IMG/VR virus record: IMGVR_UViG_3300005573_001166
Location: 64,001-128,000 of that record
Strand: one strand, 5' to 3'
DNA from: a virus
Length of the DNA stretch: 64,000 bases
Within the stretch, counting starts at the first letter, position 1, and each line of letters begins with the position of its first letter. Below, in pieces: positions 16,869-49,060 of this stretch. The notes under the pieces are model-generated. The model did not search any database and had not been told where the DNA came from. It saw only the letters and a program-made list of their open reading frames with translations. The translations under genes and the position numbers were made by a program.

Positions 16869-17243
16869 ATGGAAACAAAAGAATCGTACATTTTTGGCAA
16901 CATAACAGATCAGGATATCGTTTTCCCAGATTTAATTGTAGGTACAGGGAATACAGGACCTGCATTTAAACTACAGCCGGGGGAGGTTGTAAATTTCGAG
17001 GAGTTCTTCTCACCTCAAAGGTTAAAGAGGGCACGCTCTATAGCTATAGCAAAGGAAAGGGGGCTTATAAAGGAATGCGCTCCTGGAGAAGTTATAGAGG
17101 TTAAAAAGCGAATATATACATCAGGACCTGCTCCTAAAAACGAGTTTGATATACTTTTAGAGGAAGAACTCAAAAAAGAGCAAGAGGAGCAGGAAAGATT
17201 AAGAGCCAGTTCTATAGATGTTCTAGGTTCGAGGAATAGGTAG
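16869..17243 (+). CDS. Small head-associated protein, N-x-T..DL family
   Basis: AAGGAGG RBS; FGNITDQDIVFPDL...LQPGEVVNF...SIAIAKERGLI. Confidence 0.6.
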   Translation: METKESYIFGNITDQDIVFPDLIVGTGNTGPAFKLQPGEVVNFEEFFSPQRLKRARSIAIAKERGLIKECAPGEVIEVKKRIYTSGPAPKNEFDILLEEELKKEQEEQERLRASSIDVLGSRNR

Positions 17244-17245
17244 AA

Positions 17246-17566
17246 TTGCGTATTATAAATAATACATCAGGTCCTGTTTATATAACAGATCTAGCTTTGC
17301 GGGTAGGCAGCTCTCCTGTTTCAATAGACGCTACTAAAATTGCCTATTCCAGTAATTTGATAGAAGCGGTAGTTAAGGGTTTTGTTTCCTTAGAGATACT
17401 AGGCAGTGAGAAGGATGACTCGGCTGTTCGGCAATATTTGGAACGCTTGGATGATGCAACTGCTTTAAGTAAAGGGAAACAACTAGCTGAACAACTTATA
17501 GAGGATATGAAAAAGCGTACCAGTAACTGCCTATCTGTTAAACCCGCAAGATTGTTAGAGCAGTAA
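17246..17566 (+). CDS. Small protein, N-x-T..DL family
   Basis: IINNTSGPVYITDL...SSNLIEAVVKGFVSL. Confidence 0.6.
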   Translation: MRIINNTSGPVYITDLALRVGSSPVSIDATKIAYSSNLIEAVVKGFVSLEILGSEKDDSAVRQYLERLDDATALSKGKQLAEQLIEDMKKRTSNCLSVKPARLLEQ

Positions 17567-17586
17567 AACCTTCGGAGGTACCTTTA

Positions 17587-18795
17587 ATGAGATTAGGTAT
17601 TATCGCCCCCCTAATATTCGGCAGCTCTGGATACGCTAGAGCAGGTAGGCAGATAATGTTCGGATTATCTGATTTGGGGATAGATATTCAGTTATACGGT
17701 ATAAACCCTCGAGTATCAGATACCACTATATCAAAGGAAGAGCTAGATAGAGTGCGTTCTTTCACCTCCTTTACACAACCTCCCGATATATGGTTCAACT
17801 TAGCCCCCCAATGTTTATTTTCTTATACAAAAGAGCATACAGGATACAAAATAGGGATGTCTATGTTCGAAACCCTTCATAACCCTCCTTCTTTCACAGA
17901 AAAGTGTGCTATGTGCGATGAGATATGGGTACCTTCGCACTTTAATTTCTACACCTTTAACGAGTCAAGCAAAGTGCCGAAAGAGAAATTAGCTTATATG
18001 CCGTTGGGGGTAGATACCAATATTTACTCACCTAGGGAGTCCAAATATAAGATAACAGATAACCTAAATACCGAGTTTGACTTTGTATATGGTATTATTT
18101 GTGGATATTCTGCTAGAAAAGGGGTAGATTTAGTTCTTACGGCACACCATGAGCTTTTTAGTACAGACAGTAGGGTAGCTTTATTTGTTAAGGGAGACGG
18201 GTATGGGGCTAGGTTATTCCCTAAAGATATTGCATCTCTCTATGCAGGGCAAACTATTATAAGGGACAGCAATGTATGTGATAGAAGTAAAATACTAAAG
18301 AATAAGCCTCCTGTATTATACAGCTTTGAATCGTATCCTGATTCTGAGATAGTTGAGATTCTATTGTCTTTAGATGCTTTTGTTTTTCCTAGCAGGGGGG
18401 AGGGGTTTGGATTACCACCGTTAGAAGCTATGAGTTGTGCTTTACCTGTGATAGGAACTGCCGCTACGGGTATGAAGGAATTTATGCTGCCCAGTATTTC
18501 TTATCCTGTAAAATCTAACGGTTTCAAGCCTGAGCCTAGATGCGACTGGATAACTACTCAATACAAAGGCAACTTATTTGCAGATCCTGATTATATATCA
18601 TACAGAGATGCTGTTTGGGATGTATATACAAACCGAAAGAAAGCTAAAGCTAAGGGAGTTAAGGCTAGAGAGTTTGTAGTAAAGCATTATGATTATAAAA
18701 TAGTAACTACCAGAATGAAGAGAAGGTTAGAGGAGATTTTATCTGGTAAAACTAGTACAGAAGGTTTTTGGCCGGATGGAGGAGGTGGAATATGA
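17587..18795 (+). CDS. Glycosyltransferase, GT4 (GT-B)
   Basis: SSGYARA N-terminal motif, RKGVDL, FVFPSRGEGFGLPPLEAMSC. Confidence 0.9.
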   Translation: MRLGIIAPLIFGSSGYARAGRQIMFGLSDLGIDIQLYGINPRVSDTTISKEELDRVRSFTSFTQPPDIWFNLAPQCLFSYTKEHTGYKIGMSMFETLHNPPSFTEKCAMCDEIWVPSHFNFYTFNESSKVPKEKLAYMPLGVDTNIYSPRESKYKITDNLNTEFDFVYGIICGYSARKGVDLVLTAHHELFSTDSRVALFVKGDGYGARLFPKDIASLYAGQTIIRDSNVCDRSKILKNKPPVLYSFESYPDSEIVEILLSLDAFVFPSRGEGFGLPPLEAMSCALPVIGTAATGMKEFMLPSISYPVKSNGFKPEPRCDWITTQYKGNLFADPDYISYRDAVWDVYTNRKKAKAKGVKAREFVVKHYDYKIVTTRMKRRLEEILSGKTSTEGFWPDGGGGI

Positions 18796-19061
18796 AGATT
18801 TACAACATAACCCCTAGCGGCACAAAAGTTGTAATTCCGGACCTTAATATCACACTGTTGCCTGGGGATGCAGTAGAAATATCCCTTGAAGATCTTGGGT
18901 CACCTGCACTACAAAGAGCTATAAAAGCTAAAGTAGTAGCGGTAAAAGACTTTGGACTTAGTACTATTAAAACTGTCCCCAGTAACCGTATTACGTTACA
19001 AAGCATAGAACCTGTATTGTCTAACGTAAGAGCGGCTGTTTTAGTTAGGAGGGAAGTATGA
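18792..19061 (+). CDS. Small protein, N-x-T..DL family (start revised to ATG 18792)
   Basis: GGAGGT RBS and ATGA overlap; IYNITPSGTKVVIPDLNITLLPGDAVEI...SPALQRAIKAKVV. Confidence 0.6.
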   Translation: MKIYNITPSGTKVVIPDLNITLLPGDAVEISLEDLGSPALQRAIKAKVVAVKDFGLSTIKTVPSNRITLQSIEPVLSNVRAAVLVRREV

Positions 19062-20152
19062 AGATAGGTATATATTCACCTTATGTGTTTAGTCAAGTTA
19101 CAGGTAGAGCTAAAGTTAGTAGGTTACTAGCTTTAACTTTAGAGAAAGTGGGGATGGAGGTCAGGTTGCTAAATGCAAAACCCTCTACTTCTGACAATAC
19201 TTTAAGTGGGGAGGATTATAACCTTTTAGTGGACTTTACTAAAAGAGATTTCACTCCGGATGTTATTATAAGTTTTGTGCCTCTGGAGGAGGAGTATACT
19301 TGTAAAAAGGTAGGTATCTTATGCGATTTGTTCAATTCTGTTCCCCCTTCTTTTAATGCAGATCTGTGGGATGAGATATGGATACCTTCTAAAGCAACGT
19401 ATACAATGTTAACCAAGTCTAAAAAGCAATTAGCTGATAAAGCCCACTGGGTACCTTTTGGAATAGATACTGATGTTTTCAAACCGGGTGAAAAGATTAT
19501 AAGTATTAGCGATGAACTGAGCACCAAATTTGACTTTATATATGGATTTATAGGGGAGTATAATCCGAGAAAAGGCATAGATGTTTTGCTTCAAGCTCAT
19601 TACGACATGTTTGACTCTAACAGCTCTGTAGCCCTCTTTATAAAAGGAGATATGCGAGGAGCGAAGTATTTGCTGAAAGATACCCAACTTATTGAAAGTA
19701 ACATGCAAAAGAAAGAGTTCCCAATTATAGTTTACAGCTTTAACGCTTTTAAAGATACAGAGCTTGCTGCTATTTACAGAGCTATAGACTTATTTGTTAC
19801 TCTTACTAGAGGGGAGTGGTTTGGGCTGTCTGTTTTAGAGGCTATGAGTTGTGGGGTGCCTGTTGTAGCTACTTTAACCTCTGCTTTAAAAGATTTCAAG
19901 GAGCACATTTTTCCTGTTAAAACTGTTACTAACAGCAAATTACTAGACTCCCTTGATGGTCGATATGAAGGCTCTTTATTCTCGGAGCCGGATATAGAAC
20001 ACTACAAAAGGCTGGTTTTAGACATATATAACAAGGAGATAGATACAAGTGGCAAGGTTCAGAGTGCTAGAGAGTTTGTAGTAGATAACTACAGCTTATC
20101 TGCTTTCTCTAAAAACATCGAAAATAGATTAGAAACTCTACTAGGGGCATAA
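19058..20152 (+). CDS. Glycosyltransferase, GT4; paralog of 17587..18795
   Basis: RKGIDVL, TRGEWFGLSVLEAMSCGVPV; shared FDF.YG...VALF.KGD segments. Confidence 0.88.
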   Translation: MKIGIYSPYVFSQVTGRAKVSRLLALTLEKVGMEVRLLNAKPSTSDNTLSGEDYNLLVDFTKRDFTPDVIISFVPLEEEYTCKKVGILCDLFNSVPPSFNADLWDEIWIPSKATYTMLTKSKKQLADKAHWVPFGIDTDVFKPGEKIISISDELSTKFDFIYGFIGEYNPRKGIDVLLQAHYDMFDSNSSVALFIKGDMRGAKYLLKDTQLIESNMQKKEFPIIVYSFNAFKDTELAAIYRAIDLFVTLTRGEWFGLSVLEAMSCGVPVVATLTSALKDFKEHIFPVKTVTNSKLLDSLDGRYEGSLFSEPDIEHYKRLVLDIYNKEIDTSGKVQSAREFVVDNYSLSAFSKNIENRLETLLGA

Positions 20153-20153
20153 A

Positions 20154-21851
20154 ATGCACTTTCTATATATATCCGAGAGCCCCCATCCTTCTTTTGGGGG
20201 AGCATCTAAATGTATATACACTTTATTCTCCTACTTAACTAAATACAACCATCGTTGTACTACTATAGGCCCTGGAGGCGACAGTACCTTTGTATATAAA
20301 GACGTCAAAGTAATACACTCTTCTAATATTTACAATACCCTCTTATCTGTATTACAGGAAGACCCCCCAGATATAGTTATTACCCAACTTACAGGTGCTG
20401 ATACAGTACAAAGAACTTTACCTTCCCACATTCCCTTAATTTTAAGAATTCCTTCCTTTGAATTTATATGCAACGATCCTATCAAAATGGGAGACTGCTC
20501 CTTTCCCTGTTTACAGGGCAGTCCTTGTGCAGTTAAGGGAGCACATTTTGACCTATTCAAAAAGACTGCAGTAATAGGTTGCAGCGATTTCGTCAGTAAC
20601 ATAGTACAGAAAATATATAATGTTCCCTGTACTACTGTATATCCTTTCATAGACATACAGGAACATTTAGTAGAAAGTACAGGCAATTGCATAACAATGG
20701 TACAGGGGACTCCGTTAAAAGGGGTAGAACTGTTTTTAGATATTGCTACTAAATGCCCCGAATATCACTACTTGATAGTGGGTTTTACTAGTGTTTCTAA
20801 ATTTCCTACCAATGTAGAACATGTTCCTCCTACAGAGAACATGAAACAGGTATGGCAGAGAACAAAAGTACTACTGATTCCTTCTTTAGTTCAAGAGGCT
20901 TTTGGTAGGGTAGCTGTAGAGGCAGCTATTAACGGCATACCTGTAATAGCTTCAAATAAAGGCGGTTTGCCGGAAGCAGTTTCTCGTCCCTTCTGTTTAC
21001 CAGCTCGTCAATCTGAGTTATGGATATCAGAGTTGAAGCAATTGATGGAAAACGACGTATATTACGGTATAAGGTCTACTCAAGCTAAGGAATACGCTTC
21101 TAGATTTAGCCTTGTAAGTCAAGTCTCTAAATTTTTGCAAATAGCTTATACTTTTAAATATCCAGATTTACCTCCTACAAACACGAGCACTAAAGTAAGC
21201 ATCATAACATCTGTATATAAAGCTGGAGATTTTCTAGAGAAATATTTCAATTGGATATGCTCTCAAACATATAAAAATCTAGAGATCGTTTTAATATTGA
21301 ATGATCCTAGTGAACGAGAGTTATCTATTGTAGGTAAATATGTAGATAAATTAGAGATGCAGGTGGTTCAAGTGCCTTTAGAGCCTGTAACTGAGTCCTA
21401 CAATAGAGCATATAAGATAGCATCTGGAGATATACTGCTAGTAGCCAGCGTAGATGATACTTTGAGAGAAGATGCAATACATAGGTATGTCTATACTTTT
21501 GAAACTACAGCTGCAGATGTAGTATACTGCGATCATGTTAGGGTAACTAGTGAAGGTAGTATACCGGCCCCAAAAGTGGATTTTAACATAAACACTCTTA
21601 AGCAATTCTTTTATTTAGGCCCACATGTTGCAATACATCGCCGTATAGTAGAAAGTGGGGAATTTTTAAATACAGAATTTTTGTATGCTGCAGATTATGA
21701 ATACTATCTTAGGTTGGCTGTAAAAGGATATAAATTTGCAAGGATACCTATAGAGTTATCTACATATCTAGAACGGCCAGAGGCAATAACATATAGTTAC
21801 AGACAAGAACAAATAGATACTACTGAGAAAATAAAGAGGTTGTATGCTTAG
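20154..21851 (+). CDS. Bifunctional glycosyltransferase GT4 + GT2
   Basis: PSLVQEAFGRVAVEAAINGIPVIAS (GT4); VSIITSVY...SQTY.NLEIV...SVDD...AADYEYYLRL (GT2). Confidence 0.88.
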   Translation: MHFLYISESPHPSFGGASKCIYTLFSYLTKYNHRCTTIGPGGDSTFVYKDVKVIHSSNIYNTLLSVLQEDPPDIVITQLTGADTVQRTLPSHIPLILRIPSFEFICNDPIKMGDCSFPCLQGSPCAVKGAHFDLFKKTAVIGCSDFVSNIVQKIYNVPCTTVYPFIDIQEHLVESTGNCITMVQGTPLKGVELFLDIATKCPEYHYLIVGFTSVSKFPTNVEHVPPTENMKQVWQRTKVLLIPSLVQEAFGRVAVEAAINGIPVIASNKGGLPEAVSRPFCLPARQSELWISELKQLMENDVYYGIRSTQAKEYASRFSLVSQVSKFLQIAYTFKYPDLPPTNTSTKVSIITSVYKAGDFLEKYFNWICSQTYKNLEIVLILNDPSERELSIVGKYVDKLEMQVVQVPLEPVTESYNRAYKIASGDILLVASVDDTLREDAIHRYVYTFETTAADVVYCDHVRVTSEGSIPAPKVDFNINTLKQFFYLGPHVAIHRRIVESGEFLNTEFLYAADYEYYLRLAVKGYKFARIPIELSTYLERPEAITYSYRQEQIDTTEKIKRLYA

Positions 21852-22563
21852 CTGTATTATATTAGCAGGTGGTTTAGGTACTAGACTCTCTGCTCCTGTA
21901 CCTAAATGCGTAGTGCCTGTAAATAACAAACCTTTTCTTTTTTGGGTAATAAAAGGGTTACAGTACCAAGGAGTTGAAGATATTATTCTTTCTTTAGGGT
22001 ATAAGGCTGACTCTGTAATTTCTACAATGAAACCTATATTTGATGTAAGATATGTAGTAGAAAAAGAGCCTTTAGGTACTGGAGGAGCTATAAGGTATTG
22101 TTTAGAGTCTACTGCTACGGCAGATTCTGTCCTTATAGTAAACGGAGATTCCTTTGTCAGATTCAATTTAAAAGAACTGAAGAGAATATTCTCGGAGAAT
22201 ACAGGTGCTGTAGTAGCTTCTTATATGAATGATTGTAGTAGCTATGGGCGTATATCTATAGATGAGGATGGCCGTATTGTAGGCTTTATAGCAGGGGGAG
22301 GGAAAGAAGCGGGTATAATCAATGCAGGTATATGGCTGTTTGACAAACAGAAATTATTAGATTACATCCCTAAAGGTAAAGCATCTTTAGAATATGACGT
22401 ACTTCCCAATTTAATATCAAAAGAATCTTGTTTTGCATATACGGTAAAAGATCCTCTATTTGATATAGGCACTCCTGATAGGTTGAAAACGGCAGAATCT
22501 TTTTTTAAGAGTTTAGGAGGAGAGGATGGATTTCTCGAGTATATACGAGAAGTTATTTTATGA
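21844..22563 (+). CDS. hddC: D-glycero-alpha-D-manno-heptose 1-phosphate guanylyltransferase-like nucleotidyltransferase
   Basis: ILAGGLGTRL..PK, EKEPLGTGGAI, NGDS, INAGI, FDIGTPD; clustered with hddA/gmhA/gmhB homologs. Confidence 0.8.
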   Translation: MLSCIILAGGLGTRLSAPVPKCVVPVNNKPFLFWVIKGLQYQGVEDIILSLGYKADSVISTMKPIFDVRYVVEKEPLGTGGAIRYCLESTATADSVLIVNGDSFVRFNLKELKRIFSENTGAVVASYMNDCSSYGRISIDEDGRIVGFIAGGGKEAGIINAGIWLFDKQKLLDYIPKGKASLEYDVLPNLISKESCFAYTVKDPLFDIGTPDRLKTAESFFKSLGGEDGFLEYIREVIL

Positions 22564-23455
22564 CGCATATAGGATAAGGTTGGTAGAGGAAGAGATAATA
22601 AAATTGTTTCCTTACGATAAAATACAAAGCCCTGTGCATCTATCTATAGGACAAGAGCCTATAGCTGTAGGCCTTTGTAACAATTTGCAAAAAGAGGATC
22701 TCCTATTCTGTACTTACAGGTCCCATGCTTATTACCTAGCTAAGGGAGGAGACCTCAAAGAAATGTTTGCAGAGTTGTATGGAAAAACTACGGGTACTTG
22801 TTGTGGAAAAGCGGGATCTATGCACCTAGCAGATCCTAAAGTAAATATAATGGGAACTTCTGCTTTGGTAGCAAGTACTATACCTCATGCAGTAGGAGCG
22901 GGTTTAGCAGCTAAACTACTAGGTAAGGAGCATATAATAGTTTCTGTATTTGGAGATGGAGCTACAGAGGAGGGAGTATATCATGAGTCTTTAAACTTTG
23001 CTAGTTTACATAAGGTTCCTGTTTTATTTGTTTGCGAGGACAATGGATTTGCATGTTACACTCCTAAAAAATACAGACAAAGTTATAGTATATCAGCTCA
23101 AGCAGGGTTATACGGTATAACAACCTGGGAGATATATGAAGGATACGACTTATCAAAAGTTTACTCAATTTTTAGATCTGCTGTTTCAAGTGTAAAAGAA
23201 AATAGGCAACCTTGTTTTGTATGGTGTCGTACATATAGGTACAAAGAGCATGTAGGTATAAACGAAGACCACCACTTGCCTCCCAGAGACCCAACTGAGT
23301 ACAATATTTGGAAAAGTAGAGATTTTACAAACGATACAGAGTTGTGTTCAAAGTACAAAAGCAGTATATTACGAGAGATAGAGGGAGCTGTTTCTTTTGC
23401 AGAGCAAAGCCCCTACCCTACAAAAGCTGATTTATTTATACATGTAGGTGTCTAA
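22526..23455 (+). CDS. ThDP-dependent dehydrogenase E1 alpha-like subunit (sugar-modifying)
   Basis: HLSIGQE, YRSHA, GKAGSMH, FGDGATEEG...EDN, TYRYKEHVG. Confidence 0.88.
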   Translation: MDFSSIYEKLFYDAYRIRLVEEEIIKLFPYDKIQSPVHLSIGQEPIAVGLCNNLQKEDLLFCTYRSHAYYLAKGGDLKEMFAELYGKTTGTCCGKAGSMHLADPKVNIMGTSALVASTIPHAVGAGLAAKLLGKEHIIVSVFGDGATEEGVYHESLNFASLHKVPVLFVCEDNGFACYTPKKYRQSYSISAQAGLYGITTWEIYEGYDLSKVYSIFRSAVSSVKENRQPCFVWCRTYRYKEHVGINEDHHLPPRDPTEYNIWKSRDFTNDTELCSKYKSSILREIEGAVSFAEQSPYPTKADLFIHVGV

Positions 23456-23457
23456 AA

Positions 23458-23604
23458 ATGAAAGTATTTACTGTAACATTAATAACAACATTACTTGTGG
23501 TATATATAGTAATATGTTTTATAACTGCTTTTATTGCGTTCCTGTTTATAATTATAAGTCTTATTGTAAAAGGTATCCGTTACTTAAGGAGACGATTGTG
23601 GTAG
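23458..23604 (+). CDS. Unannotated 48-aa hydrophobic membrane peptide
   Basis: Manual translation MKVFTVTLITTLLVVYIVICFITAFIAFLFIIISLIVKGIRYLRRRLW*; AGGTG RBS upstream; fills the gap between E1 alpha and the true E1 beta start. Confidence 0.65.
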   Translation: MKVFTVTLITTLLVVYIVICFITAFIAFLFIIISLIVKGIRYLRRRLW

Positions 23605-24626
23605 TTACATATAGAGATGCTTTGCTGCAGGTAATGAATGACAGCTTAGAGAGGCCTAATACTATTATAATAGGCCAAGGAGTTTCAGATCCCAAAGGTA
23701 TATTTGGAACTACTTTAGGTTTGGCAGATAAATATGGATACGATAGGGTTATAGATGTTCCTTTATCAGAGGAATGTATAACAGGCGTTTGTATTGGAGC
23801 AGCATTAAACGGTATCTATCCCATTAACACTCATATTAGAGCTGATTTTGCGTTAGTAACTTTCAATCAGATCGTTAATTTAGCTGCTAAATACAGAGAT
23901 ACTTATCATGGTAACTTTGAACTACCTATGATGATAAGGATGGTAGTAGGGAGAAGCTGGGGACAGGGGGCACAACATTCTCAAAGCCCCCAAGCTCTCT
24001 TTGCTCATATACCCGGTCTAACTGTTTTCATGCCCTCAAATGCTCAAGCAGTACTAGATTGGTATACTTGGGCATTAGATTACAGAGATCCCGTCATCTT
24101 TATAGAGCATAGGCTTTTATACGATATACGGTTTGAAGTAAACAAACAACGTACTTCAAAGACCATACTAATGAGAGAGGGCAGAGATGTTACTATAGTA
24201 GCTACAAGTATTATGGTTTTAGAGACTATAAGGGCAGCTAAATATTTAGAACAATTTGGCATACATTGTGAAGTAATAGACTTAAATTGTATTTCTCACC
24301 CTGATTGGGAGTGTATTATAAGTAGCGTAGAGAAGACAGGCAGGTTATTGATTGCAGATACTAGTTGGAGGCCTTTTGGGGTATCTGCTGAAGTAGCTAG
24401 GGTTATAGGGGAAACGGATCCCGGTATACTAAAAGCTCCTATCAAAAGTGTAGGAATGCAGTTTGTTACATGTCCTACTGCTAAAGTACTAGAAGACGTT
24501 TTCTATCCTAGCCAGCATACACTTATAGATGACATTGCAACTTTAGTAATGGGAAGACACTCTATTCCTTTACCCACTGAGAGTTCTATGTCAGATACTT
24601 ATAAAAAATTCAAAGGTCCTTTTTGA
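23598..24626 (+). CDS. ThDP-dependent dehydrogenase E1 beta-like subunit (start revised to GTG 23598)
   Basis: AAGGAG RBS before GTG; TYRDAL, RVIDVPLSE, GQGAQHSQS, DPVIFIEHR, SVEKTGRLL. Confidence 0.88.
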   Translation: MVVTYRDALLQVMNDSLERPNTIIIGQGVSDPKGIFGTTLGLADKYGYDRVIDVPLSEECITGVCIGAALNGIYPINTHIRADFALVTFNQIVNLAAKYRDTYHGNFELPMMIRMVVGRSWGQGAQHSQSPQALFAHIPGLTVFMPSNAQAVLDWYTWALDYRDPVIFIEHRLLYDIRFEVNKQRTSKTILMREGRDVTIVATSIMVLETIRAAKYLEQFGIHCEVIDLNCISHPDWECIISSVEKTGRLLIADTSWRPFGVSAEVARVIGETDPGILKAPIKSVGMQFVTCPTAKVLEDVFYPSQHTLIDDIATLVMGRHSIPLPTESSMSDTYKKFKGPF

Positions 24627-24638
24627 GGAGGCAAAATT

Positions 24639-25607: not shown

Positions 25608-25618
25608 GAGAATAGGCG

Positions 25619-26626: not shown

Positions 26627-26634
26627 GTGAAAGG

Positions 26635-27135
26635 ATGAATATACTATTTAAAACTGATTGGTTTACTATAGAGTCCGTTCCAATGCCTGACGGTCAACCT
26701 TTCTTCTGCCTTAAATGTAAGGATGCCGTAATAGTTCTTGCAATTACTACAGATGATAAAATAGTTATGGTAAAGCAATACAGGCCTACCTTAAACAGAT
26801 ATGCGCTGGAGTTACCTGCCGGAAGTATAGAGGAGGGGGAATCTCCTTTAGCAGCAGCTAAGAGGGAATTATATGAGGAAACAGGATTTATATGTAACCG
26901 ATATACCCTCTTGTATAAGGGTCTTACCTGGCAAAGTAGAACAAATATGACTTTCTCCTTATATTTAGGATTAGATACCCAGTTCGATCACAATTACAAA
27001 GCATCTGAAGATATACAAGTTGTACTAATAGATGTTACTGATGCCAAAAGATTGTTTTATGAAGGTATAGTAGATAACTTTATCTACTACACAGCTTTAA
27101 AACTAGCAGAAGAAAAATGTGGGATACGTTTTTAG
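26635..27135 (+). CDS. Nudix hydrolase (NDP-sugar/ADP-ribose pyrophosphatase-like)
   Basis: QYRP...ELPAG and Nudix box [22 protein letters not shown]. Confidence 0.9.
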
Positions 27136-27150
27136 AAAGGAGGGATTGTT

Positions 27151-29727: not shown

Positions 29728-29728
29728 A

Positions 29729-40151: not shown

Positions 40152-40376
40152 ATGCCGGAGCTTAATACAAACGGTTGGGGGGAGTGGGGGAAGCATGTAC
40201 TACTGGAACTTGATCGTTTGGATGGACAAACACAAGAGATTCTGAAAATGTATAGGGAGATACTAATAGAAGTAACTACTCTAAAGGTAAAAGTTACACT
40301 GTTTAGTGTGGTTGCTTCTATAGTAGTTACTTCTATTATATCTGCTTTAATAGGGTACTTCTTAAAAAGGGGATGA
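40152..40376 (+). CDS. Small membrane protein, XhlA/holin-like
   Basis: NGW.EW.KHVL.EL.RL coiled coil followed by one C-terminal TM helix and a basic tail. Confidence 0.55.
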   Translation: MPELNTNGWGEWGKHVLLELDRLDGQTQEILKMYREILIEVTTLKVKVTLFSVVASIVVTSIISALIGYFLKRG

Positions 40377-40381
40377 GTTAG

Positions 40382-41716: not shown

Positions 41717-42114
41717 AGATTAAAAAAAGTGATTCAATACAATCGTCAGTATATATAACAGGTCTTAACGTTAAGATTCCCACTGACGGCTCTTGGGCTC
41801 CCCTTACAGGATATACCAAAGAGCAAATAGCTTCTTTAGACTGTCTACGACAGGCTTATGAGAAGGAGCTGATAGAGATAAGGGCAGATGACTATTCAGG
41901 CATGCCCTCTTGGTTTTATGAAGCGTATAGAAGTCAAGTAAAGGTTCCTACTTACGTATTGGAATATGAAGAAGAAAAAGTTGTAGATTATCTTTCTAAC
42001 TTAAAGGAAAAAGCGAACATTATTGTTTGGTATCTTGTAAGAACAGAGTTATTAAAACTCGAACGTAAGGGATTAGCCAGAGAGAAGGTACTTTCTATTC
42101 TTATGGAGGAATAA
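41710..42114 (+). CDS. Small protein, distant N-x-T..DL family member
   Basis: VYITGLNVKIP...EQIASLDCLRQAYEKELIEI pattern; GGAGG RBS. Confidence 0.5.
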   Translation: MLEIKKSDSIQSSVYITGLNVKIPTDGSWAPLTGYTKEQIASLDCLRQAYEKELIEIRADDYSGMPSWFYEAYRSQVKVPTYVLEYEEEKVVDYLSNLKEKANIIVWYLVRTELLKLERKGLAREKVLSILMEE

Positions 42115-42117: not shown

Positions 42118-43143
42118 GTGAGTGTTGCTTTTATGGGGCCTTGGATAGGTGAATTCGGATGGGAATTGTTAACATGGCAAGGTTTTTGTAGAGCTAAATC
42201 GGCATCATATGACAAAACATATGTATGCAGTTTTCCGGAAACAGAATACTTATATAAAGACTTTGCTACCTTTATTGCACATAACCATCCTAGAAGAGTG
42301 TTAGATTGGCAGGATATTAGTAAGGTAGAGTATACTATCCCTGAAGATGTAACAGATCATATTACGCCGTTTAAACGTTATAGAGTACCAGAACAGAAGT
42401 TTATAAAGTTTGGAAGCTCTCCTATACATGAATTTGATTATCTAATACATGCAAGAGGTACAAACAAGAACCCAAGTAAAAACTACCCTAAAGACTACTG
42501 GCAGGTTATAGTAAATGGACTGGAAGGCAAAGGAGCTTGTATAGGGACTACTTCTGATATGTTTATAGAAGGTACTACAGACTTAAGAGGTATTCCTTTA
42601 GAGCAGTTGACTAATTATATTGCAGGTAGTAAGGTTGTAATAGGTCCCAGTTCCGGTGTGATGCATTTAGCAACTCTGTGTGGTACTCCTATTATAGTTT
42701 GGGGGGATAAAGCTACGTACTTTGGGGAGACGTTGGAACAGAGATATAAAGTTACCTGGAATCCTTTTAATACTACTGTAGAGTTTCTATTTGACGATTT
42801 TTGGAAGCCAGAGCCTTTTCTTGTAGTTAAGAAAGTATACAACTTGCTAGGTACTCCTTCTATCTCAAAACCTAAAGCTGCTGTAGTTCCTTTAAAAGCT
42901 CCAGATGTAGAGGTAACTATTAAAGTAGGGGAAGGTACTGCTAAACTTTTACAAGATGCAATGTCATCTGGTAGGTGGTTTTTATCTGTAACATACGTCT
43001 CTCAAGATAAGACTTTACAGCAAGGATGGGAAACTCGTAACTTTCCCATCGGCGACTTAATTCCTAGTATTGAACATCTTAAGTTAGATATGGCAGAAAA
43101 ACAAATAAACCCAACTAAACTAAACCCTAAAGAGTGGAGGTAG
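42118..43143 (+). CDS. Glycosyltransferase GT9 (heptosyltransferase-like)
   Basis: KNYP..YW, DLRG..LEQL...I......IGPSSG.MHLA...GTP..V.WG. Confidence 0.78.
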   Translation: MSVAFMGPWIGEFGWELLTWQGFCRAKSASYDKTYVCSFPETEYLYKDFATFIAHNHPRRVLDWQDISKVEYTIPEDVTDHITPFKRYRVPEQKFIKFGSSPIHEFDYLIHARGTNKNPSKNYPKDYWQVIVNGLEGKGACIGTTSDMFIEGTTDLRGIPLEQLTNYIAGSKVVIGPSSGVMHLATLCGTPIIVWGDKATYFGETLEQRYKVTWNPFNTTVEFLFDDFWKPEPFLVVKKVYNLLGTPSISKPKAAVVPLKAPDVEVTIKVGEGTAKLLQDAMSSGRWFLSVTYVSQDKTLQQGWETRNFPIGDLIPSIEHLKLDMAEKQINPTKLNPKEWR

Positions 43144-43145
43144 GC

Positions 43146-45374
43146 ATGGCGAATTTGAAACTTGAAATTCATAACCACCAAGCTGCCGGTGATACTTTAT
43201 GTATGACTTGTGCTATAAGAGATTTGAAGAACTCCTTTCCTGACAGATACGATATTAAGCCTGTAACAAATTATATGCATATATGGGACAACAATCCTTA
43301 TATATCTGATTTTGACAGTGCCGATATCGTAATAAAAGTAGGTACAGGAATAGGCGTAAACAGATCACAGTCAACTCATTTACATATGTGTGAGGCTTAC
43401 AGACTTTCTATAGAGGACAAGCTAAACATATCTATAAAACAAGGCCCAATAAGGCCGGATGTACATCTTAGTTCAGAAGAAATAGAGGAACCTCCTTTAG
43501 TAGAGGGACACTACTGGTTAATAGCTCCAGGTACTAGAAACCAGTTTACTAGTAAGATATGGCCTTATGATAGATGGCAACAAGTTGTAGAAGCCTTTCC
43601 TAACATCACCTTTGTTCAGATAGGGTTAAGGGAGCACCCTACTCCTCTACTTCAAGGAAAAAACGTTATAAACTTTACAGGTAAGACAGAAGATCCTAAT
43701 ACCGGTATCAGAGATTTGTTTAAGCTTTGCTATCACGCACAGGGAGGATTATCATTAGTTTCCTTTTTAATGCACTTGATGGCTGCCTTTCAAAAACCTT
43801 GTGTAGTTGTAGCAGGAGCTAGAGAGCCTGCCTCTTTTGAAGCATACAACTTCCACAGATACTTACATAACCAAGGATCTTTATACTGTCCCAAGTTTAC
43901 GGATATAACTAAATCATGTTGGAGAACTAGTGTCGAAGGATGTTCCAACAGAACATCTGATGGGTATCCTAAATGCTTAGATATGATTACTGTAGATGAT
44001 GTTGTAAAAGCTGTAGAAAGTTATTATATAGGAGGTAGGCTTGTATTAGGAGATACATATGTATATAGAGAGGAAGAGGAAAAACAAGAAGCGCCTATTT
44101 TTGTACAGGAACCTCTAGAGCCAACAGAAGAAGAGTTACGAAACGTTATGATGGGGGTAGTAGAACCTACAAAACCTGCTTTGGAAGTACCAGAACCGAC
44201 AGAGAATGAAATAAAGAGACTTATAAAAGAGGTAATACAAAAGACAAAAACACAAGGGCCTATAGAAGGCACAACAGAACTTGTAAAAGAGGTAATACAA
44301 ACACAAGAACCTGTAGAAGGCACAGCAGAGCCTACAAAAGAAGCGATACAAGGAACTGGAGAGAATGAGACATCTGTTACTAACGCTTCTACGCCAAAGT
44401 TACATAAAGAAGGCAAAATATTCAAGATGGTCTGTAACGCAAGTTCTTTGGGAGGAGGAGAGAAATCTGCTATTTGGATTATGAATAGGATGGTACAAGA
44501 GGGCTATAAAGTATTTCTAGTACCTACTTCAAATGTAAGCAGTACATTTACAACCCACATCCCTAATGTAGAAGTAACTAACCAACTTACAGCACCTTGC
44601 GATATTCTTATGTTTTATACAAACGACTCTGTATTCTCTTTCCATGAAGAAAAGTACCAGATTTTCGCTAAAGTACAAGCAGTTAAAAAGGTGATGGTGC
44701 TTAATTACAAAATAGGTAAAACGGTTGAAGTAAGTTGGTCTAAAAACTGGGATAGATATGTATTTTTAAATACTACTATGGAAAAGTCGTTCTTAGAAAA
44801 ACTGCCTACCGCAAAAACTACTGTGTTGCCTCCCCCTGTAGACCTATCACCTTTTCTAAGTATAGACCTGGGGTCTCTAAACAAAACGTTGCATATCGTA
44901 AGACATTCTAGCCAAGGGGATCGTAAATATCCTAAGTTTATAAACGAACTTATCCGTAAAATAAGAGAAAAGGATTCTAAATGCAAATTCAGTTTTATGC
45001 CTCCTCCTACTTTCCTAGATACTAGTATACCCAATATAAGCTGTTTTAGATACGATGAAGTGCCGGTACCCGATTTCTTAAAAAGAGGAAACCTGTTCTG
45101 GTACCCACTACCCGAAAACTATACAGACCAAGGCCCTAGAGTAATTATAGAAGCTATGGCTATAGGCTTGCCCGTTATAGCCGATAATAGAGATGGAGCT
45201 AAGGATAGAGTAACTCCGGAAACAGGGTGGCTTTGTAATAATAAAGATGAGTACGTAGATATTATAACAAACATAAAGGGAAAGGAGTTGTCTAAAAAAG
45301 GAGAGGCAGCTAAAGAAAGAGCGGCAAAAGAATTTAACCCTGAGAAGTGGATCAATATGCTTTTGGAGTTATAA
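43146..45374 (+). CDS. Bifunctional glycosyltransferase GT9 + acidic repeat linker + GT4
   Basis: AGD.L..T.AIR.LK, KIWP..RW, F.MHL.AAF.KP.VV (GT9); GGGE.S, DQGPRVIIEAMAIGLPVI (GT4); start at ATG 43146 after GGAGGT. Confidence 0.82.
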   Translation: MANLKLEIHNHQAAGDTLCMTCAIRDLKNSFPDRYDIKPVTNYMHIWDNNPYISDFDSADIVIKVGTGIGVNRSQSTHLHMCEAYRLSIEDKLNISIKQGPIRPDVHLSSEEIEEPPLVEGHYWLIAPGTRNQFTSKIWPYDRWQQVVEAFPNITFVQIGLREHPTPLLQGKNVINFTGKTEDPNTGIRDLFKLCYHAQGGLSLVSFLMHLMAAFQKPCVVVAGAREPASFEAYNFHRYLHNQGSLYCPKFTDITKSCWRTSVEGCSNRTSDGYPKCLDMITVDDVVKAVESYYIGGRLVLGDTYVYREEEEKQEAPIFVQEPLEPTEEELRNVMMGVVEPTKPALEVPEPTENEIKRLIKEVIQKTKTQGPIEGTTELVKEVIQTQEPVEGTAEPTKEAIQGTGENETSVTNASTPKLHKEGKIFKMVCNASSLGGGEKSAIWIMNRMVQEGYKVFLVPTSNVSSTFTTHIPNVEVTNQLTAPCDILMFYTNDSVFSFHEEKYQIFAKVQAVKKVMVLNYKIGKTVEVSWSKNWDRYVFLNTTMEKSFLEKLPTAKTTVLPPPVDLSPFLSIDLGSLNKTLHIVRHSSQGDRKYPKFINELIRKIREKDSKCKFSFMPPPTFLDTSIPNISCFRYDEVPVPDFLKRGNLFWYPLPENYTDQGPRVIIEAMAIGLPVIADNRDGAKDRVTPETGWLCNNKDEYVDIITNIKGKELSKKGEAAKERAAKEFNPEKWINMLLEL

Positions 45375-45394
45375 TTTAACATACCCAAAATCGC

Positions 45395-45483
45395 CTCTAA
45401 AACCCCCTATAAGCCTCTTTTATAAATTTTATATGTAATTACTACTAAAAAATTAAAAAGGCCTTTATAGGGGGGAATAGGCC
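45395..45483. repeat. Dispersed dyad element, copy 2 (complete)
   Basis: CCCCCTATAAG (45403), central palindrome GTAATTAC (45435-45442), AAGGCCTTTATAGGGGGGAATAGGCC (45458-45483). Confidence 0.85.
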
Positions 45484-45502
45484 TTTTTAAGGGAGGTTTA
45501 GA

Positions 45503-46510
45503 ATGATATTTAGATTAATTGGGAAGGCAGATAGATATAAAACAGATTTTGGGGGTCAAAAAGCATTAATAGACATACTTAACGGTATGCATAATGCGGG
45601 GTATCAGACAGAGTGGGTTTCTTATTTCGGCAACTTTATAACTAACGAATTGTTTAGGGCAAGTATTCCTAATACAAAGGTACTTACAACAGTGCAAGAG
45701 ATGTTACAGCCTTGTGATATTTTTATGTTGTTTGTAGGTTCTCAGGCTAAATCTTTTGGTAAGGAGGCTTGCAAGGTATTTAATGATATACCTAAAGGGG
45801 CTAAAAAAGTTATCAGCTTGAATACTGTTTTGGGGCAGGTTGCTGATTACACAACTGAGGAGGGTAGAGCTGCTGCATGGGCTAGAGAGTTTGATCTTTA
45901 TATATTTGAGAATACGGCTTACATGAAAAAGTTTCTTTCTGTAGTTCCTAATAGGAAAGCTATAGTACTACATCCTTGTGTAGATATATCTCCTTTTTTG
46001 AAAATCTCTCCTACCTTCCAAGAGCCAATACATGTAGTAAGGTTAGTGTCTAGACCTAAAACAAAAATCCCTAGAAACACTAACGATTTAATACTAAAGA
46101 TTAGAGAATACCAACCTAACTGTATTTTTAGCTTTATGGAGTACACTGACTATATAATGGATGCCCCTTATATATATAAATACCATAGAGACCAAATACC
46201 TCCTCCAGAATTTTTGGCCAGAGGTAATTGTTTCTGGCATCCGTTACCTCCAGGGGTGGGGGAACCAGGTCCCAGAGTTATTGTAGAGGCTATGGCAGCA
46301 GGGCTACCTGTAATTGCTAACGGAGGAGATGGTCCTAAAGACAGGGTAACGCCTGAAACAGGTTGGCATGTAAACTCCTTAGACGAGATACCTGAAATCT
46401 TTAAAGGGTTAACTGTTGCAGAGTTAGAGAGAAAAGGGAAAGCGGCTAGGGAACGGGCTATTAGCGAATTCGGAGTTACTCCTTGGGTAAATGCAATTAT
46501 TAATGAGTAG
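45503..46510 (+). CDS. Glycosyltransferase GT4; paralog of the C-terminal domain of 43146..45374
   Basis: FGGQK, EPGPRVIVEAMAAGLPVI, KDRVTPETGW shared with the upstream gene. Confidence 0.82.
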   Translation: MIFRLIGKADRYKTDFGGQKALIDILNGMHNAGYQTEWVSYFGNFITNELFRASIPNTKVLTTVQEMLQPCDIFMLFVGSQAKSFGKEACKVFNDIPKGAKKVISLNTVLGQVADYTTEEGRAAAWAREFDLYIFENTAYMKKFLSVVPNRKAIVLHPCVDISPFLKISPTFQEPIHVVRLVSRPKTKIPRNTNDLILKIREYQPNCIFSFMEYTDYIMDAPYIYKYHRDQIPPPEFLARGNCFWHPLPPGVGEPGPRVIVEAMAAGLPVIANGGDGPKDRVTPETGWHVNSLDEIPEIFKGLTVAELERKGKAARERAISEFGVTPWVNAIINE

Positions 46511-46521
46511 GAGAAAGGAAT

Positions 46522-47706
46522 ATGAAGCTTTGTTTCTTTACTATGGCTAATAATAAACGATATGATTGGGCGTATAGGTTAATTTTGTCCGGAGAAGCAG
46601 TGAAGAGGCCTATTTGGTTTTTCAGAATACCAGACGGACACCCAGATCCCAAGAGGTATAAAATAGAGCTGCTAATGGGCGATCTATTGCCAGAAGCAGA
46701 TAAATATATCTACCTAGATAGCGATGTTCTTATGTTACAACATGGAGATTGGGAGTCAGAAGAAGCATATGGAGCTGTTAGCGAGGAAAAATTCCATATA
46801 AGTTCTAAAAATGCATTCTCAGATGAAAAAGGCTACAAAGCTTACTGCGATTTATTTGCTAAATACAATTATCCTACTAGAGTTAACACAGGAGTTGTAG
46901 TATTGCCTGGTAGTATTAGAAAGCAAGTAGGTGAAAGGTGGAAGTATTGGTGCGAGTATATAGAGTCCTTATGTGAACTACCGATGAAACTAAGAGACCA
47001 GCCTCAATTTCCTTTTGTTATGTGTGAATTTAAAATACCTGTACTTCCCGACAGGTTTTGTGCTATAATAAAGAGAGAAAGTGTACGTTCTGACCATATC
47101 GCTTTACATGCTTCCGGCCATCCTAGAGGAGATGATTTAAACCAATATATTAGTGCCGCTAATAAGCTACTAGGGGAACAGGTAGTAGGTGGTGGCGGTA
47201 AAAGGTGGCATGTACTTACCAAACTTATTATTCAATATGCTCCAAATCCTACATATCCTGTGGGTGCAGAGGTAGGGGTTTACAGAGGAGAAAATGCTTT
47301 CCATTTACTTGATATATTTCCCGGCTTAAAACTTCACTGTATTGACAATAGAAAGCTTACAAATCCTGAAAAGCACCTAGCTAGGGCCTTTGAGGATTGG
47401 GAAAGAAATAAACGGCCTTACATGGACCGTATTATAGAACATACAGTAGATTCAGATAAGGCTGATTTACCTGCAGAATCTTTAGACTACGTCTTTATAG
47501 ATGCAGATCACAGAACCGATGCTGTTGTTAAGGACATAAAGCACTATCTCCCCCTTGTAAAAAAAGGAGGGTTTATAGCAGGACACGATATAGATTACAG
47601 AGGAACTTATTACGGTAGAGATAGTGTTAGAAATGCTGTAACGGCAGTATTTGGGAACGACTTTCAAACCGGTGCCGATCATACATGGTGGCATATAAAG
47701 AAATAG
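46522..47706 (+). CDS. GT8-like glycosyltransferase fused to a SAM-dependent methyltransferase
   Basis: YIYLDSDV, NTGV, DQ (GT8-like); GAEVGVYRG, DYVFIDADH, VKKGG.IAGHD (methyltransferase). Confidence 0.8.
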   Translation: MKLCFFTMANNKRYDWAYRLILSGEAVKRPIWFFRIPDGHPDPKRYKIELLMGDLLPEADKYIYLDSDVLMLQHGDWESEEAYGAVSEEKFHISSKNAFSDEKGYKAYCDLFAKYNYPTRVNTGVVVLPGSIRKQVGERWKYWCEYIESLCELPMKLRDQPQFPFVMCEFKIPVLPDRFCAIIKRESVRSDHIALHASGHPRGDDLNQYISAANKLLGEQVVGGGGKRWHVLTKLIIQYAPNPTYPVGAEVGVYRGENAFHLLDIFPGLKLHCIDNRKLTNPEKHLARAFEDWERNKRPYMDRIIEHTVDSDKADLPAESLDYVFIDADHRTDAVVKDIKHYLPLVKKGGFIAGHDIDYRGTYYGRDSVRNAVTAVFGNDFQTGADHTWWHIKK

Positions 47707-47716
47707 GTTAATAGAA

Positions 47717-49060
47717 ATGCCTACCCCCTTTGTTTGTACTATAGGAAGAAAAAATAGAGACTATACCCATCTCTCTACTTGGGAGAATGCTATTAAGTGT
47801 AATTTAACTGCTTCTACTACTAAAGTATACAGCTGTACTAAATCTACAGGTAATACTTATCCACTTAGAGATAGCAGTACAGTATACCTTTATAGCGGTA
47901 ATGTTAAACTAGATTGCACTGCTAAACTACACCATGCTACCGAGTCCCAAGCACTTTTATCTAATATAAAAGGTTCCGTCGCTCCTCAAATAGGGCACAG
48001 TTTCAGGGAAAGCTTGAAACACGATTATATTACTTTAACAGATAACGGAGATTCTGTTATTGCTGTAGCAGAGTGTTACAACGACACTCTAGAGGATTTG
48101 TGGGATAATGTGACTTTTAAAGGTTGGAAGACAAGTAGCGATAACTACATAAAAATATATACCCCCACGGAAGAAAGGCATACAGGAGTAGAAGGTACCG
48201 GCTTTAGTATATACAATCCAGGAATCAACGATATAATAACTTTATACGACGTTGATGTAGTAATAGAAGGCATTGAATTTAAAGGAGGAGCTAAACAGAT
48301 TGCATGTATATATACTTCTCCAAAAACTATTACTATAAACTCCTGTATTTTACATGATAACTACTACGGACCTCTTATAGCCCCTCCAAAGATTGCAGGG
48401 GCGGTTATAAAGATATACAATTGTATAATGTATGACAGTAGGCAGTCTGTTATCTCCTCTTGTTCTCCTAGTACGTTATATGTCGAAAACTGTACTATAT
48501 ACAATCCCGGTTTTGGATATGGAGTAGTAGATGGGCAATGTTATAACGTAGTAGTATTTAGAAGCAACAACAGTATAGCATGTTTTGGTAGTAATACTAC
48601 AGGAGATTACAACTGCGACGGTACTAGTTCTGGTTTAGACGGCACTGCTCCTGGCGGACATTCACTTCATAATACATCACTTAGAGACATTAACTGGTAC
48701 AATGTTGTAGATTATAGAACTGCTATGAACTTTTTTACATGCGAGGGAAGCGTACTTATAAACAGAGGCATTACTAGAAAAGAAGGAGATATAGGTTTTA
48801 ACACCGATATTTTAGGGGTAACTAGGGAGGGATATTACTGGGATATCGGTGCTTTTCAGGCAGGGGGCTCTTCTGCATATAGCTCATCAAGTTCTTCATT
48901 TTCAAGTGAAAGCAGTAGTTCTTCTAGTTTTAGTAGTTTCAGTTCCAGTTACTCTTCCTCGTCTTCATCAAGTGAGTCTGTAGCAGAATACCTTCTACTA
49001 AGAACACAGGCCGATCTTTTGCGTTTAAGGGATTGGCAACAGCGAGGAAGGATACGTTAG
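47717..49060 (+). CDS. Virion surface protein with parallel beta-helix-like repeats and a C-terminal Ser-rich tract
   Basis: DY..LS.WE, INSCILHD/IYNCIMYD/VENCTIYN stacks, DIL...R...WDIGAFQ, then 29 Ser in 37 residues. Confidence 0.7.
   Translation: MPTPFVCTIGRKNRDYTHLSTWENAIKCNLTASTTKVYSCTKSTGNTYPLRDSSTVYLYSGNVKLDCTAKLHHATESQALLSNIKGSVAPQIGHSFRESLKHDYITLTDNGDSVIAVAECYNDTLEDLWDNVTFKGWKTSSDNYIKIYTPTEERHTGVEGTGFSIYNPGINDIITLYDVDVVIEGIEFKGGAKQIACIYTSPKTITINSCILHDNYYGPLIAPPKIAGAVIKIYNCIMYDSRQSVISSCSPSTLYVENCTIYNPGFGYGVVDGQCYNVVVFRSNNSIACFGSNTTGDYNCDGTSSGLDGTAPGGHSLHNTSLRDINWYNVVDYRTAMNFFTCEGSVLINRGITRKEGDIGFNTDILGVTREGYYWDIGAFQAGGSSAYSSSSSSFSSESSSSSSFSSFSSSYSSSSSSSESVAEYLLLRTQADLLRLRDWQQRGRIR

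Follow-up and report, generated by a model that had tools for sequence, protein, structure and literature searches.

The window analysed here is the whole 64,000-nucleotide stretch at bases 64001-128000 of one viral contig with a length of 159,386 bp (IMG/VR record IMGVR_UViG_3300005573_001166, here G000). The contig stems from a hot-spring metagenome and represents an uncultured phage at 90% completeness (CheckV). Between the capsid gene and the next conserved head gene lies a tightly packed island of about 31 kb in one orientation (positions 16869-49060), which encodes enzymes for rare activated sugars and a large set of glycosyltransferases (GTs). We lean towards interpreting the island as a self-contained system for O-glycosylation of proteins in the cytoplasm, directed at the virion appendages of the phage itself. 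The comparisons draw on six relatives (G001 to G006) found in IMG/VR through their major capsid protein (MCP). The features of the locus are as follows, with genes and open reading frames (ORFs) named by their start position in the window.

15749-16738, + strand: MCP, the upstream anchor of the island (phrog_2522, E 7e-45; 35% identity to Bacillus phage G gp27).
16869-17566, + strand: two small ORFs of 124 and 106 residues at the island start (no Pfam or PHROG match; homologues in the same place in G001 and G002).
17587-21851, + strand: GT4 (17587), 97-residue ORF, GT4 (19058) and GT4+GT2 fusion (20154), by Pfam.
21844-22563, + strand: HddC-type sugar-1-phosphate guanylyltransferase (PF00483; NF049965 E 3e-36, 125 bits against a cut-off of 300).
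22526-24626, + strand: thiamine diphosphate (ThDP) enzyme pair resembling pyruvate-dehydrogenase E1 alpha (22526) and E1 beta (23448), a candidate two-carbon branch former.
24639-25607, + strand: short-chain dehydrogenase/reductase (SDR) resembling GDP-heptose 4,6-dehydratase (best PDB match 7US5).
25619-27135, + strand: HddA-type GHMP kinase (25619) and Nudix hydrolase (26635), by Pfam and NCBIfam.
27151-28848, + strand: acetolactate-synthase-like ThDP enzyme with three TPP domains, a YerE-like candidate.
28930-30595, + strand: split transketolase, N (28930) and C (29729) subunits, by Pfam.
30592-32279, + strand: weak methyltransferase-like protein (30592) and SDR (31506), by Pfam.
32207-33567, + strand: broken GT2 paralogue of 33585 in three pieces, by paralogue comparison.
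33585-34898, + strand: GT2, by Pfam.
34903-37561, + strand: GT-A-like paralogues of 242 residues (34903 and 36833) flanking an Fcl-like reductase (35622), by protein-atlas features.
37586-40148, + strand: GmhB-GmhA fusion (37586), Fcl-like C4 reductase (38665) and RmlC-like 3,5-epimerase cupin (39618).
40152-42114, + strand: 74-residue ORF with a C-terminal hydrophobic segment, PAS-PAS-GAF protein (40382) and conserved 134-residue ORF (41710).
42118-43143, + strand: GT9-like protein without a four-cysteine (Cys4) motif, by Pfam.
43134-45374, + strand: fusion of a GT9 domain with TibC-type Cys4 motif (C252, C262, C270, C281), a linker and a GT4 domain.
45503-47706, + strand: GT4 (45503) and GT8-like+Methyltransf_24 fusion (46522), by Pfam and the atlas.
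47717-49060, + strand: beta-helix (residues 1-320), poly-Ser tract and conserved C-terminal peptide, a candidate acceptor and appendage, by model and homologues.
49071-51501, + strand: metallophosphoesterase with winged helix-turn-helix, unknown ORF and conserved 264-residue gene 50707, the downstream anchor.
55318-56751: tail sheath, by family match.
Contig (G000) positions 133963-135762, 136535-138295 and 149944-152766, + strand: NHL-propeller fibre-like proteins with linkers of the form S9-10-T-S-F.

Practically all credible genes are on the + strand, and the GC content is flat at 0.36-0.41. An earlier reading of the letters alone, hereafter the sequence-only reading, had described co-oriented, mostly coupled genes, and the junctions agree with this: 21 of 35 overlap or are at most 5 nt apart, and in 32 of 35 the distance does not exceed 25 nt. 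Scans for sigma-70 promoters and terminators remained at chance level with no excess of sites, and Rfam and tRNA scans of the window were empty. The tight coupling within the head operon and the lack of a promoter or terminator excess both favour a virion role. The sequence-only reading had also placed the island between capsid and neck genes. The capsid assignment holds through phrog_2522. The downstream genes have no family match and are at most putative neck genes.

All 33 ORFs between 16869 and 49060 were scanned with Pfam and NCBIfam, and the sugar enzymes that had been listed from the sequence alone were recovered. Every NCBIfam pathway match is the best match yet stays under its equivalog cut-off. 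The GmhA part of 37586 (residues 216-365) is a SIS-domain isomerase matching TIGR00441 (E 7e-48, 162 bits against a cut-off of 209), and the GmhB part (residues 2-165) matches GmhB models at E 1e-18 to 1e-8, all under cut-off. The kinase 25619 has both GHMP N and C domains and best matches the HddA model NF049969 (E 4e-38, 132 bits against a cut-off of 600). A GHMP-fold kinase combined with an NTP_transferase-fold nucleotidyltransferase points to the GDP-alpha rather than the ADP-beta route. The GmhB-GmhA fusion, the HddA-type kinase and the HddC-type guanylyltransferase can thus, as predicted from their families, make GDP-D-glycero-alpha-D-manno-heptose. Structural databases extend the pathway. 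The SDR 24639 matches the GDP-D-glycero-D-manno-heptose 4,6-dehydratase 7US5 at E 7e-78 versus about 1e-44 for GDP-mannose dehydratases. The cupin 39618 has the C. jejuni GDP-4-keto-heptose epimerases 8DB5, 8DCO, 7M14 and 7AN4 as top PDB matches (E about 3e-37), with true RmlC scoring behind them. The reductases 38665 and 35622 are closer to GDP-fucose synthases (5e-34) than to C. jejuni MlghC/DdahC-type reductases (about 1e-23). The putative 4,6-dehydratase, 3,5-epimerase and two Fcl-like reductases can turn GDP-heptose into one or more 6-deoxyheptoses. The best PDB matches of 24639 and 39618 support the proposal that the phage makes its own activated rare sugars. Inferring the host from the GmhB-GmhA fusion failed, as full-length relatives are about 35% identical and spread over many phyla. 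Sugar genes also occur outside the island (G000:C1:153692-154843, 8123-9169 and 29947-30930; a GT4, a second GT4-like gene and a GHMP kinase). Two small ORFs separate the GT4 from the poly-Ser fibre gene 149944-152766 that precedes it, and this second GHMP kinase on G000 is 25% identical to the HddA-type one.

ThDP enzymes are an unusual addition to the heptose pathway. The sequence-only reading had counted three, which is correct for the number of systems; the number of genes is five. E1 alpha/beta-like pairs such as Plm8/Plm9 and AviB1/B2, as well as the ThDP flavoenzyme YerE, attach pyruvate-derived two-carbon branches to 4-keto sugars (PMC4802897). Antibiotic sugar pathways typically combine such branch formers with methyltransferases and deoxysugar enzymes (PMC4802897). 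The island might thus serve proteins outside the virion, either of the host or non-structural ones of the phage, or a soluble or secreted glycoconjugate, such as a natural-product-like glycoside or a decoy polysaccharide. The PAS-PAS-GAF protein and a receiver (REC)-like domain in G001 also hint at regulated rather than constitutive late use. However, Pfam scans of the island revealed no genes for building an aglycone (such as PKS or NRPS), its location and conserved ends link it to structural genes, and the poly-Ser proteins have tailspike or fibre folds. We consider such a use of the island quite improbable. The PAS-PAS-GAF protein (40382-41716) has no output domain and was missing from the gene list of the sequence-only reading. 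The neighboring ORF 41710 has a homologue in the G001 island.

Glycosylation of virion appendages would draw on a broad set of glycosyltransferases. The GT4 domains number five (17587, 19058, N-terminal part of 20154, C-terminal part of 43134, and 45503), and Pfam recognizes two intact GT2 domains (C-terminal part of 20154, and 33585) as well as two GT9 domains (42118 and the N-terminal part of 43134). Of the 12 domains in 10 intact genes proposed initially, these nine are confirmed by Pfam, and the other three (34903, 36833 and the N-terminal part of 46522) are leads from the protein atlas. Similarity to viral GT-A clusters is seen for the paralogues 34903 and 36833, which share 90% identity. 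In 46522, the first 230 residues resemble GT8-like models at a TM-score of about 0.7, and the combination of a GT8-like domain with Methyltransf_24 is common in Nucleocytoviricota. The GT4 17587 is kept in every island-bearing relative and has about 17 homologues in metagenomes at 50-72% identity, which are likely orthologues. One metagenomic homologue (P0023) carries the intein/homing-endonuclease domains PF14528 and PF14890. Searches with phmmer against the PDB retrieved nothing useful for 47717, 34903, 42118 and 43134, and generic GT4 matches for 17587.

The broken GT2 gene, which the sequence-only reading covered merely through the word "intact", appears to be intact elsewhere. In contigs of other sequencing runs, TAGA is duplicated at 32324 (an insertion of 4 nt), A>T at 32643 converts the stop TAA to TAT, and A>G at 32739 converts the stop TGA to TGG. 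With all three changes applied, a single frame of 454 residues emerges that is 46% identical to 33585. The contigs with these changes have low depth, and the three changes never occur on one contig. Based on the restored frame, sister populations probably carry 11 intact GT genes. The gene at 32207-33567 appears intact in three or four other metagenomes, suggestive of on/off variation of one glycosyltransferase inside the population. A recent tandem-like duplication is also visible, with 34897-35196 and 36827-37126 being 96% identical over 300 nt and the proteins 90% identical.

The GT9 domain of 43134 (residues 1-330) carries a feature relevant to the acceptor. Its family counts 1,418 representatives (E <= 0.001). 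Among 28 aligned members, C252 never varies, and C262, C270 and C281 each reach at least 90% conservation. The four cysteines are also present in the G001 homologue. In Foldseek, the structural model (ma1a6d186df3c, pLDDT 88) best matches the protein heptosyltransferase TibC (4RAP; E 7e-12, TMq 0.63, rmsd 4.8), with WaaC at E 3e-11, TMq 0.57 and rmsd 8.2. VIA-align places TibC at Z 21.1 (rmsd 3.6, 264 aligned residues), consistent with a GT-B heptosyltransferase catalytic domain. In a profile search against the PDB, the four cysteines of the family align one-to-one with the TibC iron-finger residues Cys339, 342, 358 and 370, including a shared G-C-W, and the profile alignments to WaaC and WaaF stop short of the Cys4 region. 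TibC heptosylates serines and not threonines, and bacterial autotransporter heptosyltransferase (BAHT) enzymes work in the cytoplasm (PMC4358343). We take the Cys4 alignment as real, if moderate, support for a protein acceptor.

Serine-rich proteins are indeed encoded by the phage. Among the 161 + strand ORFs scanned on the contig, Ser/Thr runs of at least five residues are found in only five, and the fifth of these has a single 5-residue run. The other four (47717 in the window, and 133963, 136535 and 149944 on G000) have long poly-Ser tracts and appendage-like folds. The AlphaFold model of 47717 is a confident right-handed beta-helix followed by a disordered poly-Ser tract and a short C-terminal helix. 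Foldseek returned no match at E <= 0.001 for the model; the beta-helix similarity came from VIA-align, with Z 20.6 for alginate lyase, 18.9 for the cyanophage Pam1 tailspike and 17.7 for an Acinetobacter phage depolymerase. All 15 of 15 homologues have a beta-helix, a poly-Ser tract of about 20-150 residues and a conserved C-terminal peptide. The gene is the last of the island, and its orthologue also closes the G001 island. The periodic S9-10-T-S-F linkers join domains in the three downstream NHL-propeller fibre-like proteins. Both Ser codon families, with five codons in all, contribute to the tracts, which indicates that selection keeps them at the protein level. In G001, longer tracts with periodic Cys/Phe occur in beta-helix, Ig-like and propeller proteins. 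No poly-Ser runs were found in G003-G006, which have no island or, for G003, a small insert only. The island and poly-Ser proteins co-occur in G000 and G001, and this co-occurrence suggests a link between the two. G001 contains a second accessory block (44430-58589; L013/L017) after its 50707 homologue, with Methyltransf_24-like genes and two large proteins whose poly-Ser tails reach about 290 residues and have a periodic Cys/Phe.

The contig was also searched for export and priming functions. The sequence-only reading had recognized no flippase, Wzy polymerase, exporter or priming transferase. A hydropathy scan of the same 161 ORFs agrees, with marginal single hydrophobic windows and no multi-pass membrane protein. 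A six-frame hidden Markov model (HMM) search of the contig also agrees, with Bac_transf PF02397, Glycos_transf_4 PF00953, Wzy_C PF04932 and Polysacc_synt PF01943 being absent and the controls positive. All island machinery is predicted to be soluble. A SecA2/SecY2 export apparatus is likewise missing, with no multi-pass membrane protein on the contig.

The main rival explanation is that the island remodels the host envelope, either the lipopolysaccharide (LPS) core or O-antigen, the capsule, the S-layer or a different surface glycoconjugate, with export by host MsbA, Wzx or ABC systems. Soluble phage GTs could act on host lipid-linked intermediates and so block superinfection or avoid trapping on debris. 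Soluble GT9 and GT4 enzymes assemble the LPS core, host MsbA exports it, and host-envelope remodelling therefore needs no phage exporter. The missing exporters are for this reason a weaker argument for a virion target than had been claimed. Nevertheless, the contig also lacks a detectable priming transferase, flippase, polymerase, ligase or membrane protein. GT9 is the family of LPS heptosyltransferases, the model of the 43134 GT9 scores level with WaaF and WaaC (Z 20-21.5), and the GT9 of 42118 has no Cys4 motif; remodelling of the envelope would however leave the TibC-type Cys4 motif and the poly-Ser proteins unexplained. GDP-heptose and 6-deoxyheptoses are known from capsules, and the best PDB matches are Campylobacter capsule enzymes. 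Conserved ends around a variable middle are the pattern of O-antigen and capsule loci, but the island closes with a poly-Ser appendage gene that travels along. The island is also located within the head operon of an apparently lytic phage rather than in a lysogenic-conversion module. Taken together, we judge host-envelope remodelling unlikely.

The sugars could also be destined for DNA, with the GTs hypermodifying the phage genome by building glycans on hydroxymethylated bases. Metagenomic phage clusters place hexose, HexNAc, Kdo or heptose on 5-hydroxymethylcytosine (5hmC), including mono- and di-heptose, and such clusters can adjoin structural genes (Pyle et al., bioRxiv 10.1101/2023.12.21.572611). 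These clusters have a C5-cytosine methyltransferase beside the GTs, unlike the island. Neither a C5-cytosine methyltransferase (PF00145, control positive in 9 genomes) nor a thymidylate-synthase-like hydroxymethylase (PF00303, control positive) was found on the contig. A Tet/JBP-like dioxygenase (PF12851) had no match on the contig, but its positive control was silent too. Known DNA glycan clusters handle one to three sugars, and at least 10 GTs with branched-sugar enzymes go far beyond this. Glycosylated DNA is thus very improbable, in line with the sequence-only reading.

Glycosylation of virion appendages also finds support in how the island varies among relatives. In G004, G005 and G006 (MCP identity 55-63%), the 50707 homologue follows 1.2-2.2 kb after the MCP with no island, so that this gene lies 1-2 kb past the MCP in island-less relatives. 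G003 (MCP 70%) has a 3.9-kb insert with a GHMP kinase and a homologue of 16869. G002, from another sample (GC 31%; MCP 97% over the compared parts), encodes the MCP, 16869, one unrelated ORF and eight further island genes. Gene order is conserved across these nine as far as the contig reaches, with protein identities of 40-72%. In G001 (MCP 90%), an island of 25.8 kb occupies this site. Its upstream end matches with 16869, 17246 and the GT4 17587, and its downstream end with 41710, a 43134-like GT9 and the 47717 orthologue, followed by 50707. The middle differs and contains a sigma factor, methyltransferases, a GT4+GT9 fusion, six Glyco_trans_1_2 proteins, two DegT aminotransferases, a GFO oxidoreductase, and PglD-like and hexapeptide acetyltransferases. 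Judged by these genes, the G001 middle is a predicted pathway of the diacetamido-sugar type. The same site and ends around a different middle are a further point for a virion role. G001 additionally shows a REC-like domain on the GT9 homologue, and a sigma-70-type factor follows the MCP (L013:1853-3406). The MCP match is split in G002 (about 1.6 kb; L009:2410-4399) and G003 (about 0.4 kb; L007:6653-8037), which suggests an intron, intein or homing-endonuclease insertion.

An assembly chimera, with a bacterial LPS or capsule locus misjoined to phage DNA, has negligible probability given this conservation. The composition and strand bias are uniform, G002 repeats the MCP followed by nine syntenic genes, and the G001 island occupies the same site. 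Positions 15001-35000 are covered at 95-99% identity by contigs of four other studies (sediment, microbial mat, hot spring), two of which span the MCP-island junction. The sequence-only reading had proposed a search for synteny in related phages; such synteny is present, and the chimera reading was rejected because independent metagenome contigs and relatives carry the same junction. A skip joint from 16374 to 26177 in one contig was discounted, as only 21 letters support one side. Scans of viral contigs with the GT4 and beta-helix alignments retrieved G001 and G002 only. In metagenomes, the patterns derived from the GT4 alignment were too unspecific, and most genes returned were distant GT4s. 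No comparable island follows the MCP of Bacillus phage G.

The surroundings of the island contain further features. An HNH gene of this phage is located at 14642-14920. The metallophosphoesterase at 49071-50021, directly after the island, has an N-terminal HxlR-like winged helix and is not found at that position in G001. A 1.09-kb non-coding gap (51501-52591) separates the head/island operon from the tail genes. The gap has an extreme A/T tract at about 51900-52130, followed by four direct repeats about 95 bp apart that share the core TTTATTTACRTAGTATTT (4 matches versus 0.56 expected). The gap is possibly a promoter array or an origin-like region. A repeated intergenic element of the type AAAGGCC-TTTATAGGGGGG-AATAGGCC occurs at 28850-28930, 45457-45516 and 51520-51620, lying in two of the three island gaps longer than 60 nt and at one site after gene 50707.

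A mechanism for the glycosylation of virion appendages can be proposed from the predicted functions. GDP-heptose would be made first and then converted to 4-keto, epimerised and reduced derivatives. Two-carbon branches on 4-keto sugars may come from the E1 alpha/beta pair and the acetolactate-synthase-like enzyme. The split transketolase would supply sedoheptulose-7-phosphate or could extend the sugar chain, and the Nudix hydrolase may trim GDP-sugar pools. The conserved GT4 and/or the TibC-like GT9 domain might begin the chain, which soluble GTs would build stepwise on serine tracts without a lipid carrier, before or during assembly, and the methyltransferases would cap the glycan. Acceptor tracts would be those of the 47717 beta-helix protein and the downstream NHL-propeller fibre proteins. 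Exchange of the island middle between related phages would alter the glycan type. The interpretation of the sequence-only reading is partly supported. It is sustained for the phage's own sugars, the soluble machinery and the improbable glycosylation of DNA. Its virion-protein target has indirect support from the poly-Ser fibres, the substrate-like beta-helix/poly-Ser gene at the island's end, the Cys4 GT9 and the swapping of the middle between conserved ends.

Several observations weigh against glycosylation of the appendages. The co-occurrence of island and poly-Ser proteins is phylogenetically confounded because two close island-bearing phages are compared with four distant ones. The MCP has no Ser/Thr-rich extension, and poly-Ser linkers also occur in proteins without known glycosylation. 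About 10% of the genome is unseen. VIA-align ties TibC with WaaF (21.5), WaaC (20.6) and a Veillonella GT9 (24.1), and hence the fold alone cannot separate TibC from WaaC/WaaF. The profile of the 43134 GT9 matches TibC with a weak E-value of 0.058 (hmmsearch). The N-terminal beta-barrel of TibC (residues 1-97) is missing, as the model aligns from TibC residue 88 on and the GT9 domain begins at residue 8 of 43134. The predicted donor is a GDP-heptose derivative and not ADP-heptose as for TibC. Finally, GT9 and GT4 enzymes also build the LPS core without phage exporters.

Among known systems, virion glycosylation is the closest parallel. To our knowledge and among the papers searched, chemically shown virion glycosylation is confined to few bacteriophages, namely mycobacteriophages. 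Such phages have a few GT genes and seem to take sugar nucleotides from the host. In mycobacteriophages, phage GTs likewise lie beside structural genes and cytoplasmic glycans are placed on virion proteins, specifically on the C-termini of capsid and tail-tube subunits (Freeman et al. 2023, Cell Host Microbe, as summarised in PMC12619734). The island differs by having 10-11 GT genes and a complete rare-sugar supply, and by likely acceptors being poly-Ser stalks of fibre-like proteins instead of the MCP. Self-sufficient glycan factories are known for giant eukaryotic viruses. The chlorovirus capsid (PMC7019647) and mimivirus fibrils likewise depend on virus-encoded sugar nucleotides and GTs for the own particle, but the island belongs to a bacterial virus, with predicted heptose-based, ThDP-branched sugars and a swappable cassette.

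Bacterial systems share individual parts. The BAHT enzymes TibC and Aah (PDB 4RAP/4RB4; PMC4358343) share the GT-B heptosyltransferase fold with a four-Cys knuckle in the same place, but the GT9 of 43134 has no N-terminal beta-barrel, is fused to a GT4 and probably uses a GDP-heptose-derived donor. BAHT enzymes of the TibC type are characterised by a dodecameric ring, an ADP-heptose donor and a serine acceptor. Serine-rich repeat protein (SRRP) adhesins of Gram-positive bacteria are glycosylated stepwise in the cytoplasm by soluble GT4-, GT8- and GT2-type enzymes (PMC5578698). The GtfA/GtfB system shares a serine-rich acceptor, several soluble GTs and the independence from a lipid carrier. Unlike SRRP systems, the island has no accessory Sec export and no shown GtfA/GtfB orthology, and its tracts are near-pure poly-Ser with periodic Thr/Phe, or Cys/Phe in G001. 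The island would thus work like an SRRP system without being a member, and the proteins would be phage appendages. The Campylobacter jejuni capsule heptose pathway (7US5, 8DB5, 7M14) follows the same enzyme logic and provides the best PDB matches for dehydratase and epimerase. Its product enters an ABC-exported capsule, unlike the island, where no export system was found and additional ThDP enzymes are present. Lipid-carrier O-antigen or capsule loci (Wzx/Wzy, ABC) have priming, flippase, polymerase or ligase genes not found here. Among the papers searched, none described heptosylation or poly-Ser glycosylation of phage appendages.

A broader proposal is more tentative, and we regard it as possible at best. 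The clade might carry a virion "serotype" locus in a fixed slot after the capsid gene, with exchanged sugar and GT cassettes, GT on/off switching, sensor-tuned coats and widespread, undescribed serine O-heptosylation by Cys4 GT9 enzymes. The conserved ends of such a locus would be the two small ORFs and the GT4 on one side, and the TibC-like GT9 and the poly-Ser beta-helix gene on the other. Related phages would then differ in the chemistry of the glycans that coat their poly-Ser stalks. Sensor domains, PAS-GAF in this phage and REC-like in G001, may adjust the coat. If glycosylation of the appendages is true, about one fifth of a phage genome would be devoted to rare, branched and methylated heptose glycans on its own fibres. 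Poly-Ser tracts in phage fibres would gain a function, and the TibC-type protein heptosyltransferase mechanism would reach viruses. The glycans would bear on particle resistance to proteases and heat, and on adsorption to non-host material. The island would also be a source of thermostable enzymes for rare-sugar and glycoprotein synthesis. Phages would then exchange sugar pathways much like bacteria exchange O-antigen loci.

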